A DNA stretch of 44,871 nt from IMG/VR virus record IMGVR_UViG_3300045988_128081, positions 1-44,871 of that record. The stretch is one strand, 5' to 3'. Origin of the DNA: a virus. This document shows positions 1,582-44,739 of this stretch, in pieces; the stretch's first letter is position 1; every line of letters starts with the position of its first letter. The notes under the pieces were generated by a model. The model worked only from the letters and a program-made list of their open reading frames with translations. It was not told the origin of the DNA and ran no database searches. The translations under genes were made by a program, and so were the position numbers.

Positions 1582-1776
1582 TCAGATGTGCTTTTCCACC
1601 ACGCCCCGCCAGCGGCGCACCGTCCGCCCCACCGTGTCCCGGCTGATGCCCAAATCCTCCGCTATGCTCTCATAGGGCTGCCGGTCGTACATGCTGCGCA
1701 TCATAATGTCCCGGGCCTGCGCGCCCATTACATATTCGCCTATGGCGCTTGTCAGGCCGCTCCTGGTTCGGCTCAT
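1582..1776 (-). CDS. Small sigma-70 region-4-like HTH protein (64 aa)
   Basis: ORF track. YESIAEDLGISRDTVGRTVRRW resembles a region-4/LuxR-type HTH. RBS TGGAGG. Confidence 0.6.
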   Translation of the reverse strand: MSRTRSGLTSAIGEYVMGAQARDIMMRSMYDRQPYESIAEDLGISRDTVGRTVRRWRGVVEKHI

Positions 1777-1799
1777 GCGGATACCTCCATTTCTGTATG

Positions 1800-1826
1800 A
1801 AAAGGCCGCGCTTTTTCGGCGTGGCC
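1800..1826 (-). terminator. Intrinsic terminator closing antirepressor cassette A
   Basis: Minus strand GGCCACGC-cgaaaaa-GCGCGGCC (one A.C mismatch) followed by TTTTC, directly after the stop of the 1838..2617 gene. Confidence 0.65.
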
Positions 1827-1837
1827 CTATTTTTACC

Positions 1838-2617
1838 TTATCCCTGCGAGTATCGGTTGATGAAATACACTTGCCCCTTTCCCGTTACCTTGGGCGTTTT
1901 GCTCACGGTTACATGGCCGTCGGCATGGGTCACGCTGGTTTCTTTGATGCGCATCACACCCAGGTCCATGCTGCGCTGCGTAGGCATGTTCCAGTCTGTG
2001 CCCTTGCGGTTGATCAGATACCCGTCCTTGCGCAGCCGCTCAAACAGGCGGTTCTGCCCCATGTCGATGCCGTTCTGCTTTAGGATTTTTGCCAGTTCGC
2101 CCACAAGGATTTCGCTTTTGCTGGCCGCCACGCTGTCCGCAAACAGCACCTTGGGCGCGTCGGCCTCAATCTTCTGCTGCCTCGCTCGCGCTTCCTCCTC
2201 CGCTGCCAGCCGGGCGTGCCGCTCATCCCGCCACTTTACCGCCAGCTTGGCAAAGGTGTCCGGGCTGCTGAATAGCGCGTCCGTGGCTTCGTCTGTCAGG
2301 TAGGCTCCGTGCTTGCGGATGGACGGCAATACCTCGTCAAACACCCAGGATTCAAATTTTTCGGCATCGGGCAACTGACTGTGCGTTATAAGTCGGTACA
2401 AGTCTCCTTCTGGGATGTATGATATGGACTGAATACCACCTTTTGTAAGGGTGTCGCGTTTCACGACACCACGACAATGACGACTGAGCGCATCCCTAGA
2501 ATTGGAATATCCTAACGATTTCGTTACATCTGAACCGCAAAACAGCGACCTGCCATCTTCTGTGATAATCCTGATCTGCCCAAAATCCTTGTTCTCAAAA
2601 ACCGTCAATTCATTCAT
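1838..2617 (-). CDS. Antirepressor-type protein, Bro-N domain plus KilAC/ANT-like C-terminal domain (259 aa)
   Basis: N-terminus FENKDFGQIRIITEDGRSLFCGSDVTKSLGY...EKFESWVFDEVLPSIRKHGAY matches the Bro-N pattern. C-terminus VLFADSV...LVGELAKILKQNGIDMGQNRLFERLRKDGYL matches the ANT/KilAC pattern. ATGA overlap with the upstream gene. Confidence 0.85.
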   Translation of the reverse strand: MNELTVFENKDFGQIRIITEDGRSLFCGSDVTKSLGYSNSRDALSRHCRGVVKRDTLTKGGIQSISYIPEGDLYRLITHSQLPDAEKFESWVFDEVLPSIRKHGAYLTDEATDALFSSPDTFAKLAVKWRDERHARLAAEEEARARQQKIEADAPKVLFADSVAASKSEILVGELAKILKQNGIDMGQNRLFERLRKDGYLINRKGTDWNMPTQRSMDLGVMRIKETSVTHADGHVTVSKTPKVTGKGQVYFINRYSQG

Positions 2618-2916
2618 ACTGCTTTTCCCTCCTTGCGCAGTTCGTTTTCAGCTCTCATTTTCGCCAACAGCCGGAATAGGCTTAACGCGGCTTCCATGTC
2701 ATCGTCATGGCAATGCAGCGTGGAATATAGCAGGCACCAGCGTTTGCTCATCACTTCATCAGGGTCGCACGCTTCATTTCTCCGTATCGCCCGGCGCCAA
2801 TACTCCACAATTTCCAACACCTGGTCCAGAATCCCCAAATCAAGCGATGAACACTTTTCTACACGCTTGCAGATGTCCGCGCGCTTTTCCGCGATTTTCG
2901 GTTGATTTTTAGCCAT
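2614..2916 (-). CDS. Small helical protein of unknown function (100 aa), middle gene of cassette A
   Basis: ORF track. RBS GGAGG 8 nt upstream. Translationally coupled to the Bro-type gene. Confidence 0.7.
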   Translation of the reverse strand: MAKNQPKIAEKRADICKRVEKCSSLDLGILDQVLEIVEYWRRAIRRNEACDPDEVMSKRWCLLYSTLHCHDDDMEAALSLFRLLAKMRAENELRKEGKAV

Positions 2917-2944
2917 AAAAATACCTCCGTTCGGTCGTTTTGGG

Positions 2945-2992
2945 TTGACCCAAAGGAGGCAGATATGATAAGATTTATCTGCCGACCTTGGG
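2945..2992 (+). promoter_or_regulatory. Sigma-70-like promoter (TTGACC-N18-TAAGAT) on the + strand, embedded in an inverted repeat; cassette A copy
   Basis: -35 at 2945..2950, -10 at 2969..2974. Inverted repeats GGCAGAT (2958..2964)/ATCTGCC (2977..2983) and CCCAAAGG/CCTTGGG flank the -10. The same layout recurs at 30406..30453. Confidence 0.5.
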
Positions 2993-3052
2993 TTGGTAAC
3001 ATAGGATTTCGGGTTCAGTCCGCCAAGAGTGCGCCCGATATCCTATTTTTTT
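2981..3052 (+). ncRNA. Candidate ~70-nt antisense small RNA (cassette A), convergent with and overlapping the 3' end of the RHH gene
   Basis: Predicted start about 7 nt after the TAAGAT -10. Ends in hairpin ATAGGAT/ATCCTAT plus TCGGG/CCCGA followed by TTTTTTT (3001..3052). The loop carries a 19-nt block identical to the cassette B copy. Confidence 0.4.
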
Positions 3053-3219
3053 ACCGCCTGGTATACCATTTCTAATCCTTCGCGCAACACCTCGGCTTTG
3101 GTTTTCCCAGTAGCTTTACAGCAGTACTCCAATTTCTCAGCATCTTCTTGAGTCATACGTAACCGATATTGCAAGGATTTTGGATTTTCAATAGGCGGTC
3201 TCCCTTGCGTGGGGGGCAA
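3043..3219 (-). CDS. Ribbon-helix-helix (Arc/CopG-like) DNA-binding protein (58 aa from a TTG start)
   Basis: GRPPIENPKSLQYRLRMTQEDAEKLEYCCKATGKTKAEVLREGLEMV is a typical RHH beta-alpha-alpha pattern. The track's GTG at 3228 sits inside the SD AAGGAGGTG, so the TTG at 3219 (8 nt after the SD) is preferred. Confidence 0.75.
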   Translation of the reverse strand: MPPTQGRPPIENPKSLQYRLRMTQEDAEKLEYCCKATGKTKAEVLREGLEMVYQAVKK

Positions 3220-3232
3220 TCTTCTCACCTCC

Positions 3233-3277
3233 TTTATTGGATATCCGCATTATATAATGGATATCCAATAAAGTCAA
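3233..3277 (-). promoter_or_regulatory. Consensus-like promoter of cassette A with a perfect 14-bp inverted-repeat operator
   Basis: Minus strand TTGACT (3272..3277)-N17-TATAAT (3249..3254). TTTATTGGATATCC (3233..3246) and GGATATCCAATAAA (3259..3272) bracket the -10. Confidence 0.75.
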
Positions 3278-3359: not shown

Positions 3360-3704
3360 ATGGGATGGGTACTTATGCTCCTCGTGCTTTTGATATATTT
3401 AGCTTACAAATCAAGTTCGGCGAAGAGTAATAAAGGAGTTTGGGAACACGCTTCGGAAGCTGACCTTAACGCTCAAATAATCCGCGCCGAAACAGAAAAG
3501 GTTAGATGTTCTAAAAACGATACGAGATATAGAACTGCGATTAGGTTTTCAGACGGCTTTACTTATTATTCATACAAAACAAATGTGGAACCTGGCTTTT
3601 TCACATACAAAATTTCGATAGACGAAAATCTCGCAAAGGAAATCGTGGAAGATGCTATTGAAGCGCATAGAAAAGCCGTTTTAAAGATACAAAACGCTAA
3701 ATAA
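3360..3704 (+). CDS. Membrane-anchored protein of unknown function (114 aa) in an AT-rich moron
   Basis: ORF track. N-terminal hydrophobic helix MGWVLMLLVLLIYLAY. RBS GAGGG. Local GC is visibly far lower than the flanks. Convergent with the late operon. Confidence 0.7.
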   Translation: MGWVLMLLVLLIYLAYKSSSAKSNKGVWEHASEADLNAQIIRAETEKVRCSKNDTRYRTAIRFSDGFTYYSYKTNVEPGFFTYKISIDENLAKEIVEDAIEAHRKAVLKIQNAK

Positions 3705-28863: not shown

Positions 28864-29277
28864 TTATTTGCTTCGCGCTATTTGTTCCACGGCCAGCATG
28901 GCGGCTCTATGCCAGTAATAATACGTCCGCTTGGATATATTCAGTTTGGCGGCAATCTGGTCCGCGCTCATGCCCATCACATACCGCATATTCAACACAT
29001 TGCGCAAATCCTCCCGGGGCACATGGGCTATCAGGCTATCTACTTCCCTTGCTAGCCGCACATGCCGGGCGGCGGCTTCATCGGCTTTGGCTTGCGCGTC
29101 CGCCGCGGCTATGGCGCAATCCTCCATGGCTGTATGCCCCGTGCCGCCCTGCACCCTCTCGCCGCTGATCGCGCTGGGGGATCTCAGCCCTTCCGCCATC
29201 TGCCGAAAGTGTGCCGCCCGGGCGCTCCATACCGCTACCGCCACCCCTGCCCGCCGGGCATCTTCCAGCAGGTTCAT
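28864..29277 (-). CDS. Sigma-70 region-4-like HTH protein, candidate late-gene activator (137 aa)
   Basis: C-terminus LNMRYVMGMSADQIAAKLNISKRTYYYWHRAAM resembles DUF1492/ArpU/RinA-type phage regulators. Last gene of the early operon. Confidence 0.5.
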   Translation of the reverse strand: MNLLEDARRAGVAVAVWSARAAHFRQMAEGLRSPSAISGERVQGGTGHTAMEDCAIAAADAQAKADEAAARHVRLAREVDSLIAHVPREDLRNVLNMRYVMGMSADQIAAKLNISKRTYYYWHRAAMLAVEQIARSK

Positions 29278-29296
29278 GATTCATTCCTCCTATCAT

Positions 29297-29322
29297 GAAA
29301 GGAGAGGCCACAAGGCCCCTCC
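29297..29322 (-). terminator. Intrinsic terminator closing antirepressor cassette B
   Basis: Minus strand GGAGGGGCC-uugu-GGCCUCUCC (one mismatch) followed by UUUCAU, right after the stop of the 29340..30128 gene. Confidence 0.55.
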
Positions 29323-29339
29323 CCGTTCTGTATTTGGCT

Positions 29340-30128
29340 TTATGCTTCCTGCCCGGCAGCGTCCCACACGTCATACTTGATCGCCATTTCCTTCACAATC
29401 TGCACATAGCTTTCAATGGCCCGCTTGTCCTCCGCTACCACGTCCAGATAGTTCAGCTTGTCCCGCTTGCTTCGGCACATGCCGTCCTCCGCCGCACGCA
29501 GCCGCTTGTTGTTCAGGCGGCGCTTCAGGTCAATGCCGAACCGCTCCAGCATCAGCTTGTAAATGTCGCCGTTCACATCCCGGATGTAGCTCACCCCGCC
29601 CAGCTTTTCCGCAATGCGCACAATCATGGTCTTGCACTCCCGCCGCCAGTCGTTGGGGTTCAGCGCTACAATATCGCTGATGGCTCCCACCTTCTTTTCC
29701 ACCGTGTCCTGCCGGCCCTCCAGCGCTTTCTGTTTCTGCTCCATGGCCTGCATGGCGGCCACGCTCTGGGCAAACAGTTCCAGCGGCGATAACGGCTTGG
29801 ACTGGTATCCGCCTGTCTTGCGAATCTGGGGGATGACTTCATCCGCAATCAGCGCCTGAAACTTCTCCGCGGTTTCGTTCTTGGCCTTCATCGCCAGCCG
29901 GTAGAAGATGTTTTCGGGGATGTACTCAGGCAATTTTTCATCGCAACTTGTTGCGATGCCCAATTCGTTCAAGTACTTACGCACCGTGCGCCAACGTACA
30001 CACTCGTTTCCACTGGCTGCGATTTCGACAAATCCCAATCCCCGCGCCACGGTTTCCAGTTTCAGATAGGCAACCCCGTTTTCCTCGTAGCAGTCAATTC
30101 CCTTGATGTTCATAATCTCGTTATTCAT
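29340..30128 (-). CDS. Antirepressor-type protein, Bro-N-like N-terminus with a different helical C-terminal domain (262 aa)
   Basis: IPENIFYRLAMKAKNETAEKFQALIADEVIPQIRKTGGY matches the Bro-N C-terminal signature. ATGA overlap with the upstream gene. Confidence 0.75.
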   Translation of the reverse strand: MNNEIMNIKGIDCYEENGVAYLKLETVARGLGFVEIAASGNECVRWRTVRKYLNELGIATSCDEKLPEYIPENIFYRLAMKAKNETAEKFQALIADEVIPQIRKTGGYQSKPLSPLELFAQSVAAMQAMEQKQKALEGRQDTVEKKVGAISDIVALNPNDWRRECKTMIVRIAEKLGGVSYIRDVNGDIYKLMLERFGIDLKRRLNNKRLRAAEDGMCRSKRDKLNYLDVVAEDKRAIESYVQIVKEMAIKYDVWDAAGQEA

Positions 30129-30376
30129 TTCTCATTCTCCTTTTGGGTCTTCGTGTTGTCCAGCACGTCGGATAGCCGCGTGCTGGCCTTGTTCAACATG
30201 TTCAGCAGCAGTGACGACAGGTTAATCATGTCCTCCCGGAATACGCCCGCATTCCAGATAAATTCCTTCTGCGGTACATCCATAAACTGAATGCAGTACG
30301 TCCGCATCAGGCTGGTCATCTGGTCCAGTTCTACCTTGGTCCGTTCTACCTGGTTCCGCATCTCCATATCCGGCAT
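30125..30376 (-). CDS. Small helical protein of unknown function (83 aa), middle gene of cassette B
   Basis: Start at MPDMEMRN (ATG 30376), AAGGAGG 9 nt upstream. No visible similarity to the cassette A counterpart. Confidence 0.65.
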   Translation of the reverse strand: MPDMEMRNQVERTKVELDQMTSLMRTYCIQFMDVPQKEFIWNAGVFREDMINLSSLLLNMLNKASTRLSDVLDNTKTQKENEK

Positions 30377-30405
30377 ATAAAAATCCTCCTTGTTGGTCGT
30401 AGGGG

Positions 30406-30453
30406 TTGACCAAAGGAGGGCAAGCATGTTAAGATTTACTTGCCTACCTTTGG
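30406..30453 (+). promoter_or_regulatory. Sigma-70-like promoter (TTGACC-N18-TAAGAT) embedded in an inverted repeat; cassette B copy
   Basis: -35 at 30406..30411, -10 at 30430..30435. GGGCAAG (30418..30424)/CTTGCC (30439..30444) and CCAAAGG/CCTTTGG flank the -10. The inner stem sequence differs from copy A but stays complementary. Confidence 0.5.
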
Positions 30454-30515
30454 TGGGTGTCGCCTGTGTACTGTTCAGTCCGCCAAGAGTGAAACAGTTC
30501 ACAGGTTTTCTTTTT
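30442..30515 (+). ncRNA. Candidate ~70-nt antisense small RNA (cassette B)
   Basis: Ends in hairpin CCTGTG-ACTG...CAGT-CACAGG followed by TTTTCTTTTT (30463..30515). The loop has the 19-nt block GTTCAGTCCGCCAAGAGTG, identical to 3013..3031. The 3' arm overlaps the TGA of the RHH gene. Confidence 0.4.
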
Positions 30516-30687
30516 GCGCCAAAAGAAGATGAACGCCTTTCCGAATGGCTTCTCCTTTTGTGATTCCATTTGCCTTACAATACTCTTCCAGCTGTTTCAT
30601 AGTCTGTTCGTTCAGGCAAACGCTTAGCCTTTTCGTATTGGGATCCTCCAATTTTGGCCTTCCTGTTCTAGGGCTCGTGTTTCTCAC
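30499..30687 (-). CDS. Ribbon-helix-helix (Arc/CopG-like) protein, paralogue of 3043..3219 (about 62 aa)
   Basis: GRPKLEDPNTKRLSVCLNEQTMKQLEEYCKANGITKGEAIRKGVHLL. The track start (30768) lies upstream of the predicted promoter, so the GTG at 30687 is preferred. The start remains uncertain. Confidence 0.65.
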   Translation of the reverse strand: MRNTSPRTGRPKLEDPNTKRLSVCLNEQTMKQLEEYCKANGITKGEAIRKGVHLLLAQKENL

Positions 30688-30708
30688 CTCACTTTCCAGC
30701 ACACCTTT

Positions 30709-30737
30709 ATTATAATTTTGATGTGTTAGAAAGTCAA
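30709..30737 (-). promoter_or_regulatory. Consensus-like promoter of cassette B
   Basis: Minus strand TTGACT (30732..30737)-N17-TATAAT (30709..30714). The upstream tttttttcaaaaggggg tract is homologous to cassette A. Confidence 0.65.
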
Positions 30738-41827: not shown

Positions 41828-42493
41828 CTACGCCGTAGCCTGTTTGCTCAAATACCATTCCAGTTTCATCTTCCGCTGCTGGAAGTCCGGCTCGGCCACC
41901 ATTAGTCCCAGGTCAATGGCCTGTAGCTCGTCCAGCTTCTCAATCTGCTCCTGGGTCAGCCAGGGGCGTATGCTGCCAGTTTCCAGCGGAATCCCGTGCT
42001 CAATCTTGAATTGCTTAGCCGTCATGCCCAGCACCAGCCGGTTCAGCATGTCGCACTCGTTGGAGTAGTGGTAGGGCTTCGCCTCCGGGTTCAGCAGCCG
42101 AATTTGCGCCGTCAGCCTGGGAAACTGGTGCCTGGCCGATACCATGGCGGCAATGTGCGCTTCCATCTCGTTAAAGCGCTTAATGTAGGCTTCCTTGAAG
42201 GCCATAGCCCGCGGTCCGGTGTAGCCCATCACCAGCATGGTAAAGCCGTCCCGGGTCATGGCGTAACGGGGAAGCGTTCTGCCGGTGGAATCCTTGTAGG
42301 TGGACTGTACAAAATTAAGCCGTCGGAATTCTTCACTCAATCCAGATTTGGATTCAGTGATTTTAGCGATGTCACGCAACACATGAAAATGTTCTTTCTC
42401 AAACGCCGCCGCTACAAACCGGCTGTCCAGTCTGGCCGTGTCCCGCATGTCGCAGAACAGGCCGCAGTCGTTCATGGGAATCAGTTCTTTCAT
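41828..42493 (-). CDS. Rha-family phage regulatory protein (221 aa)
   Basis: RLDSRFVAAAFEKEHFHVLRDIAKI matches the Phage_pRha signature. Second gene of the early operon. Confidence 0.8.
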   Translation of the reverse strand: MKELIPMNDCGLFCDMRDTARLDSRFVAAAFEKEHFHVLRDIAKITESKSGLSEEFRRLNFVQSTYKDSTGRTLPRYAMTRDGFTMLVMGYTGPRAMAFKEAYIKRFNEMEAHIAAMVSARHQFPRLTAQIRLLNPEAKPYHYSNECDMLNRLVLGMTAKQFKIEHGIPLETGSIRPWLTQEQIEKLDELQAIDLGLMVAEPDFQQRKMKLEWYLSKQATA

Positions 42494-42524: not shown

Positions 42525-42539
42525 GTCTACTTTGTGGAC
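42525..42539. promoter_or_regulatory. Distal operator-like site identical to the one at 42763..42777
   Basis: GTCTACTTTGTGGAC overlapping the stop codon of the cro-like gene. Confidence 0.5.
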
Positions 42540-42742
42540 AACGAAGGGAAAAAAATAGACATGAACGAATCCGCATCATCAACGCCGATCTTCTGGGCAA
42601 TCGAAATCATTTCGTTTGCGCTAAGCGTCCTTCTTCCATTCATAATGTCACTTGCCTTCTGTCTGTTCCAGCCCATGGCTTTCCCGAAAGCGCAGGCAGA
42701 CGGGTATTTTTGTAAAATAGCACCGCGAAGAGTTGTCTTCAT
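42527..42742 (-). CDS. Cro-like XRE-family HTH protein (71 aa)
   Basis: ACAFGKAMGWNRQKASDIMNGRRTLSANEMISIAQ is an HTH. AGGAGGTGA RBS. Divergent from the repressor gene. Confidence 0.8.
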   Translation of the reverse strand: MKTTLRGAILQKYPSACAFGKAMGWNRQKASDIMNGRRTLSANEMISIAQKIGVDDADSFMSIFFPSLSTK

Positions 42743-42896: not shown

Positions 42897-43268
42897 GTGT
42901 ACACCAACAAACTGGTCACCGTATTTAGGGAACGCCTTACTGACTTGTGTAATGAAAGTCCTCTGAATGATACGGAAATCGCAAAAGACATTGGAGTTTC
43001 TAAGCAAACTGTTAGCGCATGGAAAAGTGGGGAACGCTCTCCCAAACAGCCAACCATTGAAAAAATTGCAAGAGTTTTCAATGTAAATGTTGATTGGTTG
43101 CTTGGGTGGGATGTCCCTAAGCGCCAGGAAGGGTACGAAAATAAAAAGCTCACCCCAGAGGATGAGCTTGATGACGATCTAACCGCTATGCTTACACGGC
43201 TGTCCGCGGCAGAACGTCTTCGGGTTCGCGCCTTTGCAGAAGGTCTGTTAGCATCTCACGAAGAATGA
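42897..43268 (+). CDS. CI-like XRE-family repressor (123 aa, GTG start)
   Basis: DTEIAKDIGVSKQTVSAWKSGERSPKQPTIEKIARVFNVNVDWLLGW is a classic HTH_3. AGGAGG 7 nt upstream of the GTG. Followed by the integrase on the same strand. Confidence 0.85.
   Translation: MYTNKLVTVFRERLTDLCNESPLNDTEIAKDIGVSKQTVSAWKSGERSPKQPTIEKIARVFNVNVDWLLGWDVPKRQEGYENKKLTPEDELDDDLTAMLTRLSAAERLRVRAFAEGLLASHEE
43137..43169 (-). terminator. Intrinsic terminator on the minus strand embedded in the repressor coding sequence
   Basis: Minus strand AAGCTCA-tcctctgggg-TGAGCTT followed by TTTATTTTC. Confidence 0.55.
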
Positions 43269-43323: not shown

Positions 43324-43358
43324 CGCTGTCTCCTTCCGTCCACATCGACCGTGTTCCC

Positions 43359-43387
43359 ATTATACAAACATTTGTTCCCATTGTCAA
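43359..43387 (-). promoter_or_regulatory. Perfect consensus sigma-70 promoter pointing into the repressor gene
   Basis: Minus strand TTGACA (43382..43387)-N17-TATAAT (43359..43364). Direct repeats TGTTCCCATT at 43352..43361 and 43373..43382 (21-bp spacing) overlap the -10 and -35/spacer. Confidence 0.75.
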
Positions 43388-43590
43388 TGCCGAATTGGCT
43401 GTGGCCGTTTCTCCACTGGCAGCATTCGCCAGCGCCTCCATTCTGGTTTTGGTCTGCGGCGCATTCCTGTCGCCTCCATTCTTTAACTAGAATGGTAAAC
43501 ATTTTTCCAATCATTGCAACACTTTCGACAAAAAAAGCGCAATATTGGCAAAACCTTAACATCCATCCAGCAAGAAAGGAAAAAGCTACC

Positions 43591-44739
43591 ATGTTCTGTA
43601 TCAAATGCAAACAAACCATTCCTGATGGCTCCGCGTTCTGCCTTCATTGTGGGGCAAACCAGCAGTCCGCCCCAAAGTCCTCCAAGCCCCGCAGCCGCCC
43701 CAATGGCACTGGCAGCGCCTACAAGCGCGGCAAAACCTGGACAGCGTGCTGGATCGCCGGTTGGAAGCCCGCTCCTGACGGACGCCTGCTGGCAAACAAA
43801 CGCACCAAGGGCGGCTTTCCCACCAAAAAGGAAGCCTTGGAATATGTCTCCACCCTCAAAACCCAAGGCAGCCGTAACCCGGATGCCAACATCACTTTCG
43901 CGTCCCTTTTTGAGCGGTTTGAGGCCCAGCATGACGAACGGGTGAAAGATACCACCATGGCAGGCTATAAATCCGCTTACAAGCATTTTAACGATATTTC
44001 TGCCATGCGCTTTGCTTCTATCGGCGTGGACGATCTGCAATACTGCATCGACGCCGTTCCGGGCAAGCGCACCCGGCAGGTGATGAAAGCTCTTGCCAGC
44101 CTTCTGTATAAATACGCTGGCAGCCGTCAAATCGTTGATACCAACCTTGCTCAGTATATTTACGTTGGAAAAGGAGAACAGATCGAACGCCCCGCTTTCA
44201 CCATGGCGCAGCTGAACACGGTTCGCAATGCCGTCGGCAGCGTACCGTATACTGATTATATCCTCTGTATGTGTTATCTGGGCTTTCGCCCAAACGAAAT
44301 GCTTTCCCTTACCAAAAAGGCTTATCATGAGGAAGACGGCGCATCTTACCTGGTAGGCGGTTTCAAAACAGAGGCAGGCACCAACCGCAAAGTTACCATT
44401 TCCCCCAAAATCCTGCCCATCATTAGACGCCGCCTGGCGGATAAGTCCTCCATCTACCTTTTCCCCAAGCAGGATGGGTCTGCCATGCGCGACGCTTATT
44501 TCCGCGATATCTTCTATGAAACGCTGAACCGGCTCGGCATCCAGCCTATCCCGAAGGCCGGAGAGCGGGCCCATCTGGTGCCGTACTCTTGCCGCCACAC
44601 ATTCGCCAATCTTATGAAGAATGTCACCGGCAGCGACACTGACAAGGCCGCCCTGATGGGCCATGCTGATGCTTCCATGACTAAAAAATATCAGTCCGAA
44701 GAACTCGAAAACCTTGTTCGTATCACAAACGCTCTATGA
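43591..44739 (+). CDS. int: Tyrosine integrase with N-terminal zinc ribbon (382 aa)
   Basis: Start at MFCIKCKQ (ATG 43591, AAAGGA RBS). CIKC...CLHCG zinc ribbon. GFRPNEML, CRHTFANL and GHADASMTKKYQ fit the R...H-x-x-R...Y catalytic boxes. Adjacent to att. Confidence 0.9.
   Translation: MFCIKCKQTIPDGSAFCLHCGANQQSAPKSSKPRSRPNGTGSAYKRGKTWTACWIAGWKPAPDGRLLANKRTKGGFPTKKEALEYVSTLKTQGSRNPDANITFASLFERFEAQHDERVKDTTMAGYKSAYKHFNDISAMRFASIGVDDLQYCIDAVPGKRTRQVMKALASLLYKYAGSRQIVDTNLAQYIYVGKGEQIERPAFTMAQLNTVRNAVGSVPYTDYILCMCYLGFRPNEMLSLTKKAYHEEDGASYLVGGFKTEAGTNRKVTISPKILPIIRRRLADKSSIYLFPKQDGSAMRDAYFRDIFYETLNRLGIQPIPKAGERAHLVPYSCRHTFANLMKNVTGSDTDKAALMGHADASMTKKYQSEELENLVRITNAL

Follow-up and report, generated by a model that had tools for sequence, protein, structure and literature searches.

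Two copies of a small repressor-antirepressor cassette lie in one phage genome, each built around a conserved intergenic element. What does that element do, and how is the cassette controlled? The DNA is IMG/VR virus record IMGVR_UViG_3300045988_128081, positions 1 to 44,871, and this whole stretch of 44,871 nucleotides (nt) is called the window below. An earlier note, made from the sequence, had described two paralogous minus-strand cassettes (A and B) with the same six parts: a promoter, a short ribbon-helix-helix (RHH) gene, a conserved spacer, a small gene (X), a Bro-N-type antirepressor gene and a terminator. We located every part in both. The cassettes are diverged, mosaic paralogues and not a recent duplication. 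We propose, with a probability of roughly 60%, that each is a self-limiting operon for an antirepressor-type protein of the KilA-N superfamily under two layers of negative control: the RHH protein, and an antisense RNA whose gene, on the best reading of the sequence, is the conserved spacer itself.

The spacer is the best-conserved segment of the cassette. It measures 126 nt in A and 122 nt in B, in keeping with the ~125 nt of the earlier note, and its nucleotide identity between copies is 70%, against 62% for the promoter and 54% for the RHH, X and Bro coding DNA. An invariant 19-mer, CACTCTTGGCGGACTGAAC, has exactly two sites in the window, both in spacers, where 0.02 would be expected by chance. 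A promoter scan that covered both strands and was blind to any hypothesis about the spacer returned the antisense promoters Pas_A and Pas_B (Table 1). Both boxes map exactly onto blocks that the spacer conserves: reverse-complementing the conserved hairpin-2 loop TAAATCTTA gives the -10 box, and the conserved GGTCAA gives the -35 box in the same way. With the start site inferred as 7 nt past the -10 box, the predicted RNA begins with a short 5' stem-loop, which a 3-nt linker joins to a long terminator hairpin (hairpin 1) followed by a U-tail; on the + strand, TTTTTTT (A) or TTTTCTTTTT (B) comes after hairpin 1. Lysine codons at the RHH C-terminus supply this U-tract as their complement, and hairpin 1 overlaps the RHH stop codon. 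The hairpin-1 stems of A and B differ at nearly every position and still pair, and the 19-nt loop that they enclose is identical. Hairpin 2 has a conserved loop, TAAATCTTAnCAT, on covarying stems; it was tried as a sense-strand terminator and rejected, as most loci have no U-tract after it.

By exact sequence the element was untraceable. Both spacers gave no blastn match in GenBank phages, an exact scan of IMG/VR with a 14-mer from the loop gave chance matches only, among the matches listed, and an 18-mer gave one chance match. A match to the hairpin-2 pattern in IMG/VR fell in an RNA-virus polyprotein and was discarded. Relatives were therefore sought through RHH homologues in IMG/VR, GTDB genomes, metagenomes and deposited phage genome records, using a profile from an 8-sequence RHH alignment, and counts were made over 47 distinct loci. 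The recurrence of synteny that the earlier note had suggested looking for was borne out: repressor, spacer, optional small genes and Bro-type gene recur in other phages and in gut metagenomes. GTDB relatives came from metagenome-assembled genomes labelled Clostridiales, Clostridia, Ruminococcus, Faecousia and Ruminococcaceae. Deposited phage records with the module were those of the Clostridioides difficile phages phiCD211 and phiCDIF1296T, Fusobacterium phage Funu2, and the Streptococcus phages or prophages Javan527 (host S. pyogenes NZ131), Javan166, Javan362 and phiJH1301-1. A Bro-N, ORF6N, Rha or KilAC gene lay no more than 2.3 kb downstream on the same strand at 34/47 loci, with representatives confirmed by Pfam; three of the 13 loci without one are truncated contigs.

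The survey also bears on the strand from which the spacer is read. Within 150 nt after the RHH stop codon, the best antisense promoter scored a mean of 10.7 out of 13, versus 8.4 for the sense strand and 8.3 for shuffles (p ~4e-9; 47 loci), and scores of at least 10 were reached at 38/47 loci in the antisense and 3/47 in the sense direction. An antisense hairpin with a T-run was present at 43/47 loci. The RNAs predicted in relatives are about 64–97 nt long, mostly 64–75, and they share one two-stem-loop plan. Hairpin 1 was on average more stable as antisense RNA (-19.9 kcal/mol) than as sense RNA (-13.0 kcal/mol; n = 21, Wilcoxon p = 9e-5), because many of its G.U pairs become A-C mismatches in the sense RNA. 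Across 26 distinct stems, the outer 11 base pairs of hairpin 1 were paired in 98.6% of cells versus 52% in shuffles, a figure inflated by the alignment register, which was anchored on each sequence's own fold; the strand asymmetry is therefore the more independent result. Changes occurred on both sides at 11/11 pairs, and the covariation score was 1.28 versus 0.29, a value that 0/500 shuffles reached.

These data argue against a spacer that acts in cis only, either as a structured sense leader (an attenuator, thermometer or protein-binding site) or as operator palindromes in the DNA, with the antisense boxes incidental. Such a role is improbable in our view, even though both hairpins fold in the sense RNA too (z-scores -4.5 and -5.4), no strand bias is seen in hairpin 2, and its inverted repeat is centred on a -10-like box in the geometry of an RHH operator. 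It would leave near-consensus boxes at 17–18 nt spacing to chance at the 38 antisense as against the 3 sense loci, it does not predict a T-run after hairpin 1 in the antisense direction only, and it gives no account of a hairpin that is ~7 kcal/mol steadier on that strand. Hairpin-2 stems, moreover, differ between loci whose RHH proteins are ~80% identical, and RHH is therefore not their ligand.

If the spacer does encode an antisense RNA, its effect on X would have to be indirect, for 65 nt separate the end of the predicted target from the X start codon downstream, and the ribosome binding site is left uncovered. The 5' arm of hairpin 2, which is covered, is purine-rich and Shine-Dalgarno-like; pyrimidines dominate the uncovered 3' arm (CCUCCUUUGG), which can pair with the X Shine-Dalgarno region. 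In cassette A this pairing was worth -17.6 kcal/mol and 0/300 control windows paired as well, and in cassette B it was worth -11.6 kcal/mol, in the top 1% of controls. Over 19 loci the mean was -10.8 kcal/mol versus -5.4 for random windows of the same locus (p = 1.6e-4), and 13 of the 19, both window cassettes included, fell in the top 5%. Partition-function models (n = 20) gave the Shine-Dalgarno an unpaired probability of 0.43 when the leader was free and 0.15 when the antisense target was blocked (p = 4e-6); with an equal stretch blocked inside the RHH gene as a control, the value was 0.44 (p = 0.2). A conserved ACGACC block before the Shine-Dalgarno pairs with GGUC (the antisense -35 box) at the top of the sequestering helix, and it fits that helix better than a pseudoknot. 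A pseudoknot in the style of ColIb-P9 was sought by eye, and no convincing CGCCAA partner of UUGGCG was found near the X ribosome site. On these models we give Shine-Dalgarno closure triggered by the antisense RNA about even odds; cleavage of the duplex by RNase III, or promoter interference, is possible instead of it or besides it.

The other proposed layer of control is transcriptional. Both cassettes have the homologous TTGACT-N17-TATAAT promoter and the T-run/GAAAA/GGG tract upstream that the earlier note had reported, with 11/12 matches each, and the A/T tract upstream of promoter A is common to cassette B and a relative, locus L168. In each cassette the -10 box lies between the arms of an inverted repeat (Table 1), whose sequence differs between A and B; related loci likewise have direct or inverted repeats flanking the -10 box. 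Repeated half-sites thus occur at the gene's own promoter, as predicted for RHH autoregulation. The short RHH gene with the shared GRP..E.P pattern is present in both cassettes, and the two proteins are 31% identical. Pfam RHH_1 matched RHH_B with 21.5 bits (cut-off 20.5) and RHH_A with 14.6 bits, under the cut-off, and PHROG 876 ('transcriptional repressor') matched the RHH proteins at 3e-13 and 7e-15. RHH_B also matched phrog_582 ('Arc-like repressor') at 1.4e-3, and among solved structures the RHH profile found CopG weakly (E = 0.07) and ParG and KacA more weakly. RHH_A most likely starts at TTG 3219, because this codon aligns with the ATG of homologues. The equivalent codon of RHH_B is ACG 30678; of the alternatives, GTG 30687 sits within the Shine-Dalgarno and TTG 30651 would drop the conserved GRP motif. 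The ACG recurs in a relative with 98% identity (L200), for whose contig gene calling chose the TTG start (50 amino acids, aa).

Put together, the circuit would run as follows. A strong sigma-70-type promoter would transcribe RHH, X and Bro, and RHH, judging from the anatomy of the promoter, would bind the inverted repeat around the -10 box and repress its own operon. From the RHH-X spacer a convergent promoter, with its -10 box in the hairpin-2 loop and its -35 box just upstream of the X ribosome site, would produce an antisense RNA of ~70 nt ending in the predicted terminator hairpin over the RHH stop codon. RNA and mRNA would first touch through their long complementary hairpin-1 loops, where a UUGG(C/U)(G/A) motif in one partner fits the YUNR U-turn; pairing would then extend to leader hairpin 2, taking in its 5' arm, and the released pyrimidine-rich 3' arm would fold onto the X Shine-Dalgarno. 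Translation of X would drop, and that of Bro with it, since the Bro start overlaps the X stop (ATGA). Plasmid circuits of such design are expressed in a burst when they enter a naive cell; tight, dosage-compensated repression and inhibition in trans of incoming copies follow. By analogy, an antirepressor operon entering a cell without RHH and RNA might give a burst of X and Bro and afterwards be expressed at a very low, gene-dosage-buffered level, and a lysogen might silence an incoming copy in trans. The two RNAs, which share the 19-nt loop, may also act on each other's operons.

The loop motif was not always on the same strand. Both window cassettes carry UUGGCG in the sense hairpin-1 loop, and most relatives carry UUGGCG, UUGGUC or UUGGUA in the antisense loop instead (a descriptive observation). 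A YUNR U-turn, in the recognition loop of one or other partner, is described as ubiquitous among loop-loop antisense systems (PMC4485353). Antisense RNAs A and B are identical over the 19-nt loop run and at 14 of the first 17 nt of the 5' end, and their cross-duplexes are predicted at -56 and -59 kcal/mol, versus about -147 for the cognate ones. The shared loop and these predicted duplexes make RNA-level cross-regulation between the cassettes plausible.

Relatives suggest that the module is shuffled internally. Locus L168 (2620–3020) resembles cassette A in its promoter-upstream DNA, its X gene (92% identical) and its Bro-N gene; it shares neither RHH gene nor hairpin 1 with A, and in hairpin 2 and the antisense promoter it is nearly identical to cassette B. 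We conclude from this mosaic that modules recombine inside the spacer element. A broader proposal is more tentative, and we would not stake even odds on it: that the spacer represents an unrecognized family of countertranscript RNAs, widespread in phages of Firmicutes and Fusobacteria, which would bring the logic of plasmid copy number and incompatibility into the lysis-lysogeny decision, with the RNA loop and not a protein setting specificity. The loop would then decide which antirepressor operons of co-resident or incoming phages come to be silenced in trans, a role like that of c4 in P1 and P7, and this would account for an identical 19-nt loop amid diverged surroundings and for recombination inside the element.

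What lies between the RNA and the Bro-type gene varies. The small proteins of 100 and 83 aa are, as the earlier note had it, without detectable similarity to each other, and neither X_A nor X_B had a match in Pfam or PHROG family searches. AlphaFold modelled X_A as four helices with a mean predicted local distance difference test (pLDDT) score of 64, too poor for a fold search. Although present in both window cassettes, X is not the fixed part of the module that it had been taken for: relatives carry zero to three small, mutually unrelated genes in its place, frequently with ATGA overlaps. X is conserved among close relatives, and at 83–100 aa, kept in those relatives and found elsewhere without the module, it is probably more than a leader peptide. 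The independent occurrence is at L162 (2700–4100) and L163–L167, where a 66%-identical X_A homologue follows reading frames of 52 aa and 45 aa; no RHH gene, spacer element or Bro gene was found at that locus. There, ~770 nt without a called gene follow the homologue, near genes for Sigma70_r2 and a PriCT_2 primase.

Other relatives show further variants. At L136 (2092–2391) one of the small genes that separate the spacer from a Bro-N/ORF6C gene encodes an HNH endonuclease, and L147 (2900–3110) has a tandem second RHH gene after the first module, with its own TTGACTTTTGG...TATATTAT promoter. Streptococcus satellite phage Javan751 (L170, 4074..4806), a pneumococcal satellite, has an RHH gene and a spacer with the antisense promoter TTGACA-17-TAAGAT and an extended -10 TG; a 135-aa hypothetical protein stands in place of the Bro-type gene, and the spacer has no clear antisense T-run.

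The Bro genes are joined to X by the ATGA overlap that the earlier note had seen, and their C-terminal domains do differ, with ANT/KilAC in A only. Bro A matched Pfam Bro-N at 1.4e-18 and ANT at 1.4e-36, and phrog_130 ('anti-repressor Ant') at 7e-88. Bro B matched Bro-N at 1e-5 (26.4 bits, cut-off 25.6) and phrog_373 ('anti-repressor') at 7e-29. From these annotations and from context, inactivation of a CI-type repressor is the most likely function of the Bro proteins. The earlier note had suggested that the cassettes might serve anti-immunity against other prophages, or defence.

Two other functions were weighed. The cassettes might be toxin-antitoxin-like, abortive-infection or superinfection-exclusion modules in which the KilA-N/KilAC protein or X is harmful and RHH and the antisense RNA are the antidote. 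Makarova et al. list repressor-plus-Bro pairs as toxin-antitoxin-like mobile modules, and some Ant-domain proteins are toxic (PMC2701414). The moron-like character of the cassettes (own promoter and terminator, lower G+C, variable insertion sites) would suit such a module, as would tight double repression of a harmful product. We nonetheless think it unlikely, since Pfam and PHROG searches found no toxin-type domain in the cassette proteins and representatives, the antisense-RNA-controlled Ant operons of P22 and P1 are immunity regions and not toxin-antitoxin systems (PMC2629481, PMC12197685), and the RHH gene comes first as a predicted transcriptional autorepressor, with no hint of a protein antidote.

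Bro-N and KilA-N are DNA-binding folds, and the Bro-type proteins could instead be regulators of the phage's own developmental programme, for example of late-transcription timing, and not antirepressors. Cassettes A and B and L168 all lie directly upstream of a sigma-70 region-4-like gene, and the weak terminator of cassette B could allow read-through that links it to the late activator. Elsewhere, however, the module occupies unrelated places: it lies between terminase and portal in Javan362 and before the capsid genes in Javan166, and it precedes a Holliday-junction resolvase gene in phiJH1301-1. A sigma-like neighbor is therefore not a general feature, and we think it unlikely that the Bro-type proteins are such regulators.

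The extent to which each cassette is self-contained differs between copies. The earlier note had called both autonomous and closed by intrinsic terminators. This holds for A, which has a predicted promoter and a convincing hairpin with T-run. In B the hairpin is strong, but its U-tract is poor and the terminator scan did not call it, which makes autonomy less clear and a leak into the late-activator gene possible. The adjacency of cassette and sigma-like gene may be a coincidence or a functional link via read-through. Cassette G+C is 51–52% versus 56%.

Several observations weigh against the proposed two-layer circuit. Antisense transcription, its promoter, its start site and its terminator are all predictions, and the antirepressor role of Bro-N/KilAC proteins is a domain annotation. 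The spacers matched no Rfam family at gathering thresholds, in a library whose content for phage RNA families (e.g. those of P22) was unchecked; at permissive E-values the best match was CopA-like RF00042 on the + strand of B, with 15.8 bits against a threshold of 60 (E = 4.4). MAFFT and RNAalifold on 30 predicted antisense RNAs gave an alignment too gappy for consensus pairs, so that no consensus emerged. As to the RHH assignment, RHH_A falls below the Pfam cut-off, the CopG structure match is weak at E = 0.07, and RHH_B has no convincing start codon. The hairpin-1 pairing percentage is biased toward structure by the per-sequence folds. Hairpin 2 has no strand bias (p = 0.27); a protein at the antisense promoter could bind it as a palindrome in the DNA. 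In models of L121, L133, L145, L146 and L148 the Shine-Dalgarno is paired already without the RNA, and the 3' arm of the L123 group lacks complementarity to it; from these loci, either the switch is absent from some members or thermodynamic folding models it poorly.

The surroundings are those of a temperate phage or prophage, with nearly all genes beyond the switch region on the minus strand (Table 1). The attachment site is likely the truncated tRNA at the window edge beside the integrase. A family search of the 123-aa CI-like protein matched helix-turn-helix (HTH) families only and revealed no protease domain. Induction through repressor self-cleavage is thus probably not the route in this phage, and the lack of a protease domain fits induction through an antirepressor. 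No SOS/LexA-type box (GAAC-N4-GTTC) was found close to either cassette or to the lysis-lysogeny switch, and SOS control of the cassettes was rejected on that ground. Cassette A lies beyond the polyvalent protein gene, whose counterpart in L168 encodes 2488 aa, and cassette B just upstream of the DUF1492/sigma-r4 late-activator candidate. The lone 114-aa gene beside cassette A has a hydrophobic N-terminal segment and no family match. In L168, too, a sigma-70 region-4-like gene directly follows the cassette.

Table 1 Features of the two cassettes and of their phage context, in window coordinates.
Feature	Coordinates	Strand	Remarks
Cassette A main promoter P1	3249..3277	-	TTGACT-17-TATAAT; promoter scan, 11/12 matches
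Cassette B main promoter P1	30709..30737	-	TTGACT-17-TATAAT; promoter scan, 11/12 matches
Cassette A operator candidate	3232..3273		perfect 15-bp inverted repeat CTTTATTGGATATCC / GGATATCCAATAAAG; flanks -10 box
Cassette B operator candidate	30692..30733		imperfect inverted repeat CTTTCTAACACA / TGTGCTGGAAAG, 10/12; flanks -10 box
RHH_A	3043..3219	-	58 aa from TTG 3219; alternative GTG start at 3228
RHH_B	30499..30687	-	start uncertain: GTG 30687, ACG 30678 or TTG 30651
Antisense promoter Pas_A (predicted)	2945..2974	+	TTGACC-18-TAAGAT, extended -10 TG; promoter scan
Antisense promoter Pas_B (predicted)	30406..30435	+	TTGACC-18-TAAGAT, extended -10 TG; promoter scan
Predicted antisense RNA A	2981..3052	+	~72 nt; terminator hairpin 3001..3046, loop GUUCAGUCCGCCAAGAGUG, U-tract
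Predicted antisense RNA B	30442..30515	+	~74 nt; same two-stem-loop plan
Hairpin 2 of sense leader, cassette A	2949..2992	-	5' arm inside antisense target; 3' arm CUGCCUCCUUUGGGUC (2947..2962) anti-Shine-Dalgarno
Hairpin 2 of sense leader, cassette B	30410..30453	-	3' arm CCCUCCUUUGGUC (30408..30420)
X_A Shine-Dalgarno region	2922..2936	-	GACCGAACGGAGGUA; complementary to 3' arm of hairpin 2; X_A start 2916
X_B Shine-Dalgarno region	30384..30398	-	GACCAACAAGGAGGA; can pair with 3' arm CCCUCCUUUGGUC; X_B start 30376
X_A	2614..2916	-	100 aa, helical; no family match; 7 homologue clusters among 5.8 billion proteins
X_B	30125..30376	-	83 aa, orphan; one cluster, 98% identical, among 5.8 billion proteins
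Bro A	1838..2617	-	259 aa, Bro-N + ANT/KilAC; start overlaps X_A stop (ATGA)
Bro B	29340..30128	-	262 aa, Bro-N + different C-terminal domain; ATGA overlap with X_B
Cassette A terminator	1799..1827	-	hairpin + T-run; T-run on + strand as well
Cassette B terminator-like hairpin	29295..29324	-	-23 kcal/mol; weak U-tract TTTCAT, just before DUF1492/sigma-r4 gene
Sigma-70 region-4-like HTH gene	1582..1776		64 aa; directly after cassette A
DUF1492/Sigma70_r4_2 late-activator candidate	28864..29277		directly after cassette B
Lone 114-aa gene	3360..3704	+	between cassette A and polyvalent gene; divergent from cassette promoter
Polyvalent protein gene	3869..12277	-	2802 aa, MuF_C + LPD38 domains; adjoins cassette A
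Rha	41828..42493	-	opposite CI-like gene, as is Cro-like gene
Cro-like gene	42527..42742	-	opposite CI-like gene
CI-like HTH repressor	42897..43268	+	123 aa; faces Cro-like gene and Rha
Tyrosine integrase	43351..44739	+	N-terminal zinc ribbon; adjoins truncated tRNA
Truncated tRNA gene	44827..44871		window end; adjoins tyrosine integrase

We found no description of this module in the literature on antirepressors, antisense RNA, CopG/ribbon-helix-helix proteins and phage. A 2025 review of phage small RNAs gives sar, c4 and 24B_1 (of Phi24B) as the only regulators of antirepressors, all from Gram-negative hosts, and never uses the word Gram-positive (PMC12197685). The adjacency of repressor and Bro-type genes was noted in general terms in 2009, with Xre-type repressors (PMC2701414). 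The spacer RNA is a good candidate for a new RNA family, and not for a new principle. Antirepressor modules decide whether a prophage stays silent and mediate cross-talk between prophages sharing a cell. If the proposal is true, a compact, plasmid-type throttle made up of a repressor and an antisense RNA acts on the antirepressor-type genes of many temperate phages, those of C. difficile, gut clostridia and streptococci (S. pyogenes, S. agalactiae and S. suis phages or prophages among them), and the same control circuit has been recruited independently by plasmids and phages. It would add an RNA family with a clear, testable anatomy and a handle on induction and superinfection immunity in medically relevant hosts, and the small portable module could serve Gram-positive synthetic biology as a gene-dosage-compensating expression controller.

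The immI region of Salmonella phage P22 encodes RHH repressors. The earlier note had likened the cassettes to it (Arc/Mnt, sar and Ant), and the architecture was rightly recognized: in both, a small RHH gene comes first, an antisense RNA (predicted here) lies between, and an antirepressor-type gene follows downstream. In P22 the operon promoter serves arc first and the antirepressor gene further on, and the 68–69-nt antisense sar RNA, made from the region between the two, holds antirepressor synthesis down; the unit is a moron (the 'ant moron') inserted in or beside late genes (PMC2629481, PMC12197685). Whereas sar pairs with the ant translation start (PMC12197685), the predicted cassette RNA ends 65 nt before the X start, does not overlap the ribosome site and would have to act indirectly. 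The cassettes further differ in having no Mnt-type second repressor, in the unrelated small gene or genes between RNA and Bro, in their presence twice in this phage and in their Firmicutes hosts.

The copG-rnaII-repB region of plasmid pMV158 offers a second likeness, with an RHH autorepressor, a countertranscript from the spacer and a leader target just upstream of translation signals. CopG is a 45-aa RHH autorepressor co-transcribed with the gene that it controls, and RNAII is a 48-nt RNA with a 5' tail, a terminator hairpin and a U-tract, whose target lies immediately upstream of the translation signals; loop-loop kissing is reported not to be critical (PMC4485353). The CopG structures are the best specific natural repressor match of our RHH profile, weakly (E = 0.07). 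The cassettes differ in controlling phage Bro-type genes and not a replication initiator, and, unlike RNAII, the predicted RNA is ~70 nt long with two stem-loops and a large loop, which is here the most conserved part.

The target loop of ColIb-P9 Inc RNA reportedly carries 5'-rUUGGCG-3', as the title of Asano et al. 1998 puts it, and this hexamer is the sense-loop hexamer of both window cassettes. An upstream repressor gene, a large recognition loop in the antisense RNA and translational coupling are further features that the cassettes appear to have in common with R1 and ColIb-P9. In CopB/CopA/tap/repA of R1 and Inc RNA/repY/repZ of ColIb-P9, control of a leader frame is passed on by translational coupling (PMC5415839). 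With a CopA-like Rfam score of 15.8 against a threshold of 60, the spacer RNA is not a member of that family, and X, unlike the leader frames of R1 and ColIb-P9, is 83–100 aa long and occurs independently elsewhere.

In phage P1 the small frame icd precedes and overlaps ant, which depends on icd translation, and Ant carries a KilAC-type domain. The coupling proposed between X and Bro resembles this c4/icd/ant arrangement. The immI regions of P1 and P7 resemble the cassettes in that a small regulatory RNA restrains an Ant protein: c4, of 77 nt, limits Ant synthesis and sets the heteroimmunity of related phages (PMC12197685). P1 immI differs in having no RHH gene, and, unlike c4, which is processed from the sense transcript and acts on downstream repeats, the RNA predicted for the cassettes would be a true countertranscript.

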